64,000 nucleotides of DNA from a virus, in IMG/VR virus record IMGVR_UViG_3300044878_000031, positions 1-64,000 of that record. One strand, 5' to 3'. The notes beneath the pieces were generated by a model. The model was given only the letters and a program-made list of their open reading frames with translations, did not search any database and was not told where the DNA came from. Both the position numbers and the translations under genes were made by a program. Shown in pieces: positions 48,385-49,048 of this stretch. Every line of letters begins with the position of its first letter. Position 1 is the first letter of the stretch.

Positions 48385-48516
48385 GGTAAAGCTGACAATG
48401 TTAGGCATCGAAGCCCTGCTAGTTCCCGGACCGCACTAGCTTTCCATTAACGACGGCTGACGCGTTGTCAGCTATGGCCCTCGCTAATGACTCCCCAGGA
48501 GTGCACTGCCACAAAA

Positions 48517-48655
48517 TGGTCCTCCGCTGTCGGATCTACCGACGCGACCGCTTCAACTGACCCCCGGCGTACGGGACGTTTAGGTTACACTAGAACAACA
48601 TTCCCACGCAGTAGCGTTCACAATGCGCACTCTAATGGCCTTGGTCTACAGAGGA
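48517..48655 (-). ncRNA. CCA-ended tRNA-like RNA (139 nt)
   Basis: Acceptor TCCTCTGT/GCGGAGGA-CCA, T-like arm GTCGG-TAGAT-CCGAC, GACC/GGTC stem enclosing an insert. Confidence 0.55.
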
Positions 48656-48669
48656 TGAAACTATGAATT

Positions 48670-48799
48670 TGGCCCCGAGGGGTGGACTCGAACCACCGAC
48701 CTCCCGCTGGCAAGCGTGTTTAAACGTTCTCGCCACGTTAGTAGCTATCAACGTAACCGCATGTCTAACGAGTGTTCTAACCGACTGAACTACCCAAGG
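48670..48799 (-). ncRNA. tRNA scaffold with a 60-nt insert in place of the anticodon loop
   Basis: Canonical D arm, CTCGT/GCGGG stem, AGGTC variable loop, GGTGG-TTCGAGT-CCACC, GCCA end. Confidence 0.75.
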
Positions 48800-48800
48800 G

Positions 48801-49048
48801 ATTGAAAGACTAACCGCTACCCCGACCTACGGAATGCAATACTCACTGTGACCTCTGGAGGAAAAGAAAGAAAACCCCAGAGCAACTCGGTATGCAATCG
48901 AGCCATGTAACACATTGAGTCGGGTCACGCTACTCCAACCGCAGAACACCGGAAGTCCGTCAAGTCCCAGTAGATTCCCCTTTCGCCGTGAAGCTAGAGG
49001 TCGTGCTGGAATCCCTGCTATCGGTCAGTAACGTGTAGGTCTCTCAAT
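48801..49048 (-). ncRNA. Structured ~250-nt ncRNA
   Basis: Closed by 10-bp ATTGAGAGAC/GTCTTTCAAT; nested stems; no ORF. Confidence 0.55.

Follow-up and report, generated by a model that had tools for sequence, protein, structure and literature searches.

Non-decoding RNAs shaped like tRNAs are known, such as T4 species 1 RNA, the Y RNA-like RNAs and the domains of tmRNA, and their roles in phages are obscure even after 50 years. The nearest natural precedents for the gene described here are the stable RNAs species 1 and 2 (rnaC and rnaD) of T4, which are non-coding and lie inside the T4 tRNA cluster; the ends of the 139-nt rnaC are paired and its T arm resembles that of a tRNA, and it lacks a D arm or cloverleaf. 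YrlA (Rfam RF02553), which is also non-decoding, joins a module resembling a tRNA to a long helix that binds protein, but it is permuted (both of its ends are in the long stem and its acceptor is closed by a loop) and works with Ro/Rsr. The tRNA-like domain of tmRNA is made of an acceptor and a T arm, with a long irregular helix (H2) leaving from the anticodon side; it has G3:U70, lacks a D stem and contains pseudoknots and a tag reading frame. Short inserts in the anticodon region of tRNA genes, conserved between genomes, have been reported as 'enigmatic introns' in Lak megaphages, where they are called interrupted tRNAs with defined anticodons and where alleles with and without the insert exist (PMC6784885). 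Finally, in the engineered tRNA scaffold of Ponchon and Dardel, the acceptor, D and T arms are kept while a structured RNA borne on an extended anticodon stem replaces the loop, and the tRNA chassis confers processing and stability in bacteria (PMC3753655).

The window (the whole 64,000-nt stretch of DNA analysed here) corresponds to the initial 64 kb of an IMG/VR record of 112 kb whose completeness is estimated at 41%. It encodes a chimallin, a PhuZ tubulin, a divergent family B DNA polymerase and pieces of a multisubunit RNA polymerase, and on account of these genes the phage can be assigned to the nucleus-forming (chimallivirus-type) jumbo phages of bacteria. Xanthomonas phages are the nearest isolates, with a PhuZ identity of only 42-46%; the closest one, LucasX (45.7%), has no annotated tRNA genes beside PhuZ. 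ARAGORN and Rfam identified ten tRNA genes on the minus strand at 45429-48384, within an island where tRNAs, tRNA-like units and ORF-free spacers are tiled along one strand. The tRNA-like gene under study sits just upstream of these ten genes and heads the cluster. Because a terminator-like hairpin (49114-49095) ends the ORF that precedes it, this gene also heads a transcription unit. The neighbouring ORFs carry no RNA-binding or RNA-processing annotation and no informative domains. A Tad2-like (Thoeris anti-defence 2) gene was found amid the tRNA genes at 46852-47541 on the minus strand (Pfam PF11195, E = 1e-21), and the tRNAs of the island are of the kinds targeted by host anticodon nucleases (PMC10264068, PMC11464382, PMC11555353).

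The first-pass annotation had described a tRNA scaffold in which a 60-nt structured domain takes the place of the anticodon loop, and all the tRNA elements that it listed were recovered. The features are collected in the table below. The Rfam tRNA model aligned end to end with the gene, over 48673-48799, with a score of 35.9 bits (cut-off 29); all 71 model positions were aligned and exactly 60 nt, from 48767 to 48708, were skipped in the anticodon loop. ARAGORN in bacterial mode missed the gene, whereas a covariance model built for the family (R1) gave it 128.3 bits. Six of the seven acceptor positions are paired, with a U4.C69 mismatch and a U3.G70 pair, and the acceptor pairs covary among homologues. 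U8 and A9 separate the acceptor from the D arm, the columns of which are invariant or covarying in the homologue alignments, and A26 follows it. The anticodon stem is compensated in relatives (CCAGT/GCTGG in G001, CTGTC/GGTGG in L144). The gene thus contains a 7-bp acceptor, a D arm, a T arm and the elbow nucleotides of a cloverleaf, as U8, A14, G18, G19, C48, G53, U54, U55, C56, A58 and C61 are all present. An encoded CCA is likewise found in the corresponding genes of the relatives G003 and G006 and in every ordinary tRNA of the cluster.

Table. Coordinates of the rod-bearing tRNA-like gene, its parts and its companion in the window.
Feature	Position	Strand	Remarks
Whole tRNA-shaped RNA gene, first of the cluster	48670-48799	-	130 nt including encoded CCA
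Acceptor 5' strand, CCTTGGG	48793-48799	-	pairs with 48674-48680
D arm, GTTC-AGTCGGTTA-GAAC	48774-48790	-	with A14, G18, G19
Anticodon-stem 5' strand, CTCGT	48768-48772	-	pairs with GCGGG, 48703-48707
Inserted rod domain	48708-48767	-	60 nt; stretch skipped by Rfam, conserved fold
First 7 nt of the insert, UAGACAU	48761-48767	-	anticodon-loop-like (GAC) with A33
Helix P 5' strand, ACGTT	48750-48754	-	pairs with AACGT, 48724-48728
Internal loop 5' side, GATA	48746-48749	-	consensus RNUA
Apical hairpin, GCTAC-TAAC-GTGGC	48732-48745	-	
Internal loop opposite side, GAG	48729-48731	-	consensus GAN
3-nt bulge of the rod 3' strand, UUA	48721-48723	-	consensus UUN
Anticodon-stem 3' strand, GCGGG	48703-48707	-	
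Variable loop AGGTC and T arm GGTGG-TTCGAGT-CCACC	48681-48702	-	T-stem pairs covary
Acceptor 3' strand CCTCGGG, discriminator G73, encoded CCA	48670-48680	-	
Companion gene, last tRNA-like gene, after tRNA-Ser(TGA)	45820-45898	-	R1 score 67.3 bits

Homologues of the insert were looked for by a PhuZ-anchored search and by pattern scans. Relatives were found in six uncultured jumbo phages (G001-G004, L144 and G006), whose PhuZ proteins are 63-69% identical, and in a metagenome fragment, L131; a further metagenome contig, L124, is an identical copy of the window phage. Eight distinct copies of the rod gene were therefore analysed, from the window (G000), the six relatives and L131. Five genomes were searched in full, and the R1 model returned a single match in each, of 109-130 bits, when ordinary tRNAs scored 67 bits or less; none of 100 other viral loci exceeded 64 bits. 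Blastn of the window region and of a relative of the B type (see below) against 50,697 phage records, T4 included, gave no match, an exact search of viral contigs with the 3' half returned nothing, and literature searches yielded no description of a rod-bearing tRNA-like family.

The minimum-energy fold extends the anticodon stem into a rod, an irregular helix of about 25 bp that stands in for the anticodon arm. Helix P, capped by the apical hairpin, is supported by both minimum energy and covariation. The thermodynamic signal is modest (z = -2.07 for the insert and -0.24 for the whole RNA), and the evidence for a fold beyond chance comes from the homologues. RNAalifold applied to a MAFFT alignment recovered the cloverleaf and the rod, with compensatory changes in 25 of 41 pairs. 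In a model-guided alignment of the eight copies, 93.5% of the cells at pair positions were paired, against 36-44% when partners were slid by 1-3 columns, 26/41 pairs were changed on both sides, and the covariation score reached 0.605 against at most 0.156. None of 500 shuffles matched the values of the real alignment, a statistic that is inflated since the homologues all come from one clade; a 7-sequence MAFFT alignment agreed. Homologue covariation was among the checks proposed at first, together with the possibility that the insert would be unique to this isolate and structurally unconserved; the fold is kept in all eight copies. The particular hairpin drawn in the first-pass annotation, GTTACGTTG/TAACGTGGC, can be formed in the window copy, yet it is not conserved (neither in G003 nor in G006).

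Helix P illustrates how the rod is maintained, as its five pairs are all changed on both sides across the eight sequences (ACGUU/AACGU in the window; CCACC/GGUGG, CUGUC/GGCAG and CCAUC/GGUGG in others). The sequence of the apical hairpin is free to vary while its pairing is kept, and it is capped by UUCG in L093. Conserved unpaired nucleotides are few and correspond to the 4x3 internal loop RNUA/GAN, in which the U and A of one side and the G and A of the other are invariant, to the UUN bulge, with its two invariant T, and, in the copies located at the head of the cluster, to a single-nucleotide bulge. The RNUA/GAN loop may resemble loop E or an S-turn. G003 and G006 share 90.5% identity in their phuZ DNA and only 72.7% in the insert, with the pairing of the rod preserved, which indicates that the constraint on the rod is structural rather than on its sequence. 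An alternative fold made of a local anticodon hairpin (CUCGU-UAGACAU-GCGGU) followed by a giant variable arm was rejected, as only 48.6% of its cells were paired, no better than in shuffles.

In the five genomes searched in full, the rod always belongs to the first or to the last tRNA-like gene of the cluster. It is carried by the head gene, with G73 and CCA, in the window, G003 and G006, and by the tail gene, after tRNA-Ser(TGA), in G001, G002, G004, L144 and L131. The tail gene has a different acceptor, a T arm reading GCAAG/CTTGC and, unlike all the ordinary tRNAs, no encoded CCA. In the tail-rod phages G001, G002 and G004, the head gene bears instead a domain of about 94 nt, designated B, and the head position of G001 also shows a hairpin extension, designated A, of 25 extra nt. 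The inserts have thus been swapped among head and tail genes, so that one scaffold can receive several payloads and one payload can be found on two scaffolds. The window phage itself possesses the companion of these tail genes, at the end of its cluster. This gene has perfect acceptor, D and T arms, and its position and T arm (GCAAG/CTTGC), which match those of L134:1523-1648, make it the orthologue of the rod-bearing tail genes of the relatives. Its anticodon arm is a 9-bp stem sealed by a UUCG tetraloop, and for this reason it cannot yield an anticodon loop. Where the rod is absent, the arm is therefore sealed and not restored to an anticodon loop.

The B-type head genes are located at L137:6076-6230 (-), L136:7185-7337 (-) and about L134:5350-5500 (-). 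Their insert of about 94 nt is conserved, has a fold unlike that of the rod and no match in Rfam; in G004, the gene carrying it shares the acceptor type of the window element (CCCTGGG/CCTCGGG-G-CCA). Only phages with B-type inserts possess, between a leader motif and the head tRNA-like gene, a hydrophobic ORF of about 50 amino acids (MMRAVFVFVPAL...; L001:13633-13785 (+), with equivalents in L134 and L136). The leader itself is conserved upstream of the head gene, at 48853-48882 and 48814-48832 (-) in the window and at L001:13540-13612. It includes a hairpin whose pyrimidine loop (GGTTTTCTTTCTTTTCC) is invariant and whose stem is compensated (CTCTGG/CCAGAG in the window, CCCAAAGG/CCTTTTGGG in G001), followed by the motif CCGTAGGTCGGGGTAGCGG, which occurs once per tRNA-cluster locus in each relative examined. 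The leader and the motif may correspond to a promoter, to a leader RNA or to a site bound by a protein.

Other unusual elements were noticed in the island. A third tRNA-like gene (45607-45686 (-) in the window, L146:18419-18493 (+)) has a tRNA-Ser-like D arm and no CCA, and is called tRNA-Ala(agc) by ARAGORN; in place of the anticodon arm stands a 5-bp stem closed by a triloop, and this stem is compensated between the window (AGCGC-UAA-GCGCU) and G006 (GUCGC-AUU-GCGAC). A 'tRNA-Val(cac)' of normal size (46503-46571 (-) in the window, L134:2603-2672 (-)) has a CACACAG loop with A33, a C1.A72 mismatch, a 4-nt variable loop and no CCA, and the loop of its G006 counterpart reads CGCCCAA with G33. 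ORF-poor spacers at 48385-48669 (-) and 44281-44925 (-) are conserved in relatives and may contain further structured RNAs; in G001 and G002, for example, tRNA-Tyr is preceded by a T-arm-like unit, AGTGG-TTCGATC-CCACA. Outside this clade, a pattern scan of the IMG/VR loci L003-L120 gave 55 matches that passed a filter on acceptor and T-stem pairing and in which 20-70 extra nt set the D arm and the variable loop apart, on many unrelated phage contigs; they include many duplicate copies present on several contigs, and a few of them (e.g. L026) are two adjacent tRNAs and not insertions. Among them were an 80-nt AT-rich insert common to many contigs of about 100 kb and, in L037, a nested tRNA-like sequence. 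Bodies of tRNAs with an enlarged anticodon region are under-annotated more widely.

Compared with the systems described above, the rod gene shares with the T4 stable RNAs its location in a tRNA cluster and its tRNA-like ends, but the internal hairpins of rnaC differ from the rod. A relationship with YrlA was discarded: RF02553 had no match in the window and a weak one in L001 spans two adjacent genes, and the sole candidate for a TROVE/Ro partner (in G006, 25 bits) has three stops and lies antisense to ORFs. tmRNA was discarded as well: the rod gene has U.G at position 3:70, an intact D arm and an insert limited to 60 nt that contains no reading frame, and ARAGORN called no tmRNA in the window. 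The gene resembles engineered tRNA-scaffold display, as had been noted from the start; the relatives vary the insert on a given scaffold and the scaffold under a given rod, which fits a carrier with a payload. The engineered scaffold is a laboratory design and the rod gene a natural, conserved phage gene; they share a principle and no homology.

Can the rod gene decode? A decoding tRNA would have a 7-nt anticodon loop that shows U33 and, at position 37, a purine; here 60 nt separate the two strands of the anticodon stem and position 33 is an A. The constraints that bear on anticodon loops are relaxed in the family: U33 is present in two of the eight rod genes, compared with 53 of 57 ordinary tRNAs from the same seven clusters, and the four exceptions among the latter are aberrant genes themselves, three of them being the 'tRNA-Val(cac)' genes and their G006 counterpart. 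The implied anticodon is GAC in the three head genes, while the five tail genes would imply GGC, AAT, GAC, GCC and AAC (Ala, Ile, Val, Gly and Val). The UAGACAU columns lie inside the lower helix of the rod and pair with its 3' strand, and in L144 the seven 'loop' nucleotides are fully base-paired. In intron mode, ARAGORN proposed a differing identity and intron position for nearly every copy.

The most serious alternative, which we nevertheless consider unlikely, is that of an interrupted tRNA-Val(GAC) gene, whose 53-nt intervening sequence, inserted after position 38, would be removed to give a decoding tRNA. In the three head genes the insert starts with UAGACAU or CUGACAU (YNGACAU) followed by GCGG, and since GCGG is repeated in the 3' strand of the stem, a deletion of 53-56 nt recreates an arm similar to that of tRNA-Val(GAC); the same repeat implies that the boundary could fall anywhere up to position 42/43. 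The product predicted by this doubtful scheme would be about 77 nt long with a junction CUCGUUAGACAU/GCGGGAGGUC, and its maturation would call, just as doubtfully, for host enzymes, a new phage enzyme, or self-cleavage followed by ligation. In its favour, ARAGORN called tRNA-Val(GAC) for the three head genes after in-silico removal, and the clusters hold no other Val(GAC) tRNA. Moreover, the head copies retain G73 and CCA, as a chargeable tRNA would, and the G006 loop, CUGACAU, has U33, two observations that count against a mere carrier. Bodies of tRNAs with 20-70 extra nt are common among IMG/VR contigs, and short unexplained inserts have been reported in phage tRNA genes (PMC6784885). The non-canonical intron envisaged in the first-pass annotation is weakened: in the window, removal of 53 nt would leave CUCGU-UAGACAU-GCGGG, with A33, and G003 also has A33. 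The tail orthologues that carry the same rod with five different implied anticodons, the paired 'loop' of L144 and the UUCG-sealed tail gene of the window, in which no 7-nt loop is restored, also argue against it.

The possible removal routes were considered in turn. The insert (53-60 nt) is too small to be a group I intron, as initially stated, since such introns take about 200 nt or more, and Intron_gpI had no match up to E = 10 over 48550-48950, a region where Rfam detected only tRNA and no intron or ribozyme family. Hammerhead, twister, pistol, hatchet and HDV-like self-cleaving ribozymes were likewise rejected at this threshold, in the window and in L001. No bulge-helix-bulge (two 3-nt bulges separated by 4 bp, at the exon-intron borders) was seen by inspection: positions 36-38 are paired in the consensus fold, and the UUN bulge, the sole one of 3 nt, occurs far inside the rod and has no second bulge opposing it at a distance of 4 bp. 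PF01974, PF01139 and PF09414 had no match in five phage genomes, among them the complete G006 (243.7 kb), and these genomes yielded neither a tRNA-splicing endonuclease (EndA) nor RtcB, an Rnl2-type RNA ligase or RNase III; PF09511 (T4 Rnl1 model) was silent in the phage genomes, as it was in the control. Unlike in the Lak cases (PMC6784885), no uninterrupted allele was detected in IMG/VR viral contigs or in 185,579 prokaryote species (one genome each), the sole match being a chance one inside a Saccharothrix coding region without a tRNA. Archaeal and eukaryotic introns also pair with the anticodon and give an extended helix, and the rod by itself is for this reason compatible with an intron. 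Protein-dependent tRNA splicing is not known in bacteria. We judge it quite unlikely that a true intervening sequence of about 53 nt is removed in bacteria by neither the group I/II nor the archaeal endonuclease route. Taken together, these results indicate that the rod gene is probably a non-decoding RNA, a tRNA-shaped carrier of an RNA module.

It could also be imagined that the tRNA shape only guides RNase P or RNase Z in cutting the long non-coding transcript of the island, the rod being functionless. The tiling of the island along one strand and the hairpin at 49114-49095, which places the element at the head of a transcription unit, agree with such punctuation, but punctuation would need neither conserved unpaired nucleotides in the rod, nor one rod per genome, nor retention of the rod across scaffolds, and we hold it to be very unlikely. 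A decaying, functionless tRNA pseudogene hit by an insertion is the least credible explanation and extremely improbable: the gene as it stands cannot decode, its acceptor stem has a mismatch and the cluster contains several more unusual tRNA-like genes, but the elbow nucleotides are invariant, every helix, insert included, is compensated across phages with PhuZ only 63-69% identical, there is a single copy per genome, the genomes of phages are compact, and UUCG, a stable type of cap, closes the stems.

We therefore favour, with moderate confidence, a stable non-decoding tRNA-shaped carrier for a putative protein-binding rod, in which the tRNA body would be the chassis and the rod the working part. 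The gene would be transcribed along with the phage tRNA cluster and the RNA presumably excised as a tRNA is, by RNase P at the 5' end and by 3' trimming to the encoded CCA. The acceptor, the T arm and the elbow formed with the D arm would ensure correct processing, folding and resistance to nucleases, the invariant elbow and the paired ends serving to recruit the host tRNA-processing enzymes and to shield the RNA. The RNUA/GAN loop, the UUN bulge and the variable apical hairpin may form a surface for a phage or host protein. Our preferred guess, and it is a guess, is that the RNA serves as decoy or sponge against a host factor that binds or cleaves tRNAs, because the island holds the Tad2-like gene and tRNA types targeted by anticodon nucleases. 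The analysis establishes the anatomy of the gene, the conservation of its structure, its single copy per genome and the relaxed constraints on the anticodon loop; processing, stability, protein binding and an anti-defence role of the rod RNA are what we infer.

Whatever the function, these genes form a well-defined family backed by covariation, in a clade of nucleus-forming jumbo phages that keep one rod per genome on a tRNA chassis, and tRNA-like genes of this class are overlooked by standard tRNA finders. The swapping of modules between chassis amounts to the logic of the engineered tRNA scaffold reached naturally. If the rod were spliced, it would reveal a new route of tRNA splicing in bacteria, and the Lak-type 'enigmatic introns' of many huge-phage tRNA genes might be explained too. 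Should the rod bind a host factor involved in defence or translation, it would constitute a new type of RNA-based counter-defence. Either way, the gene provides a concrete 130-nt object for experiments.
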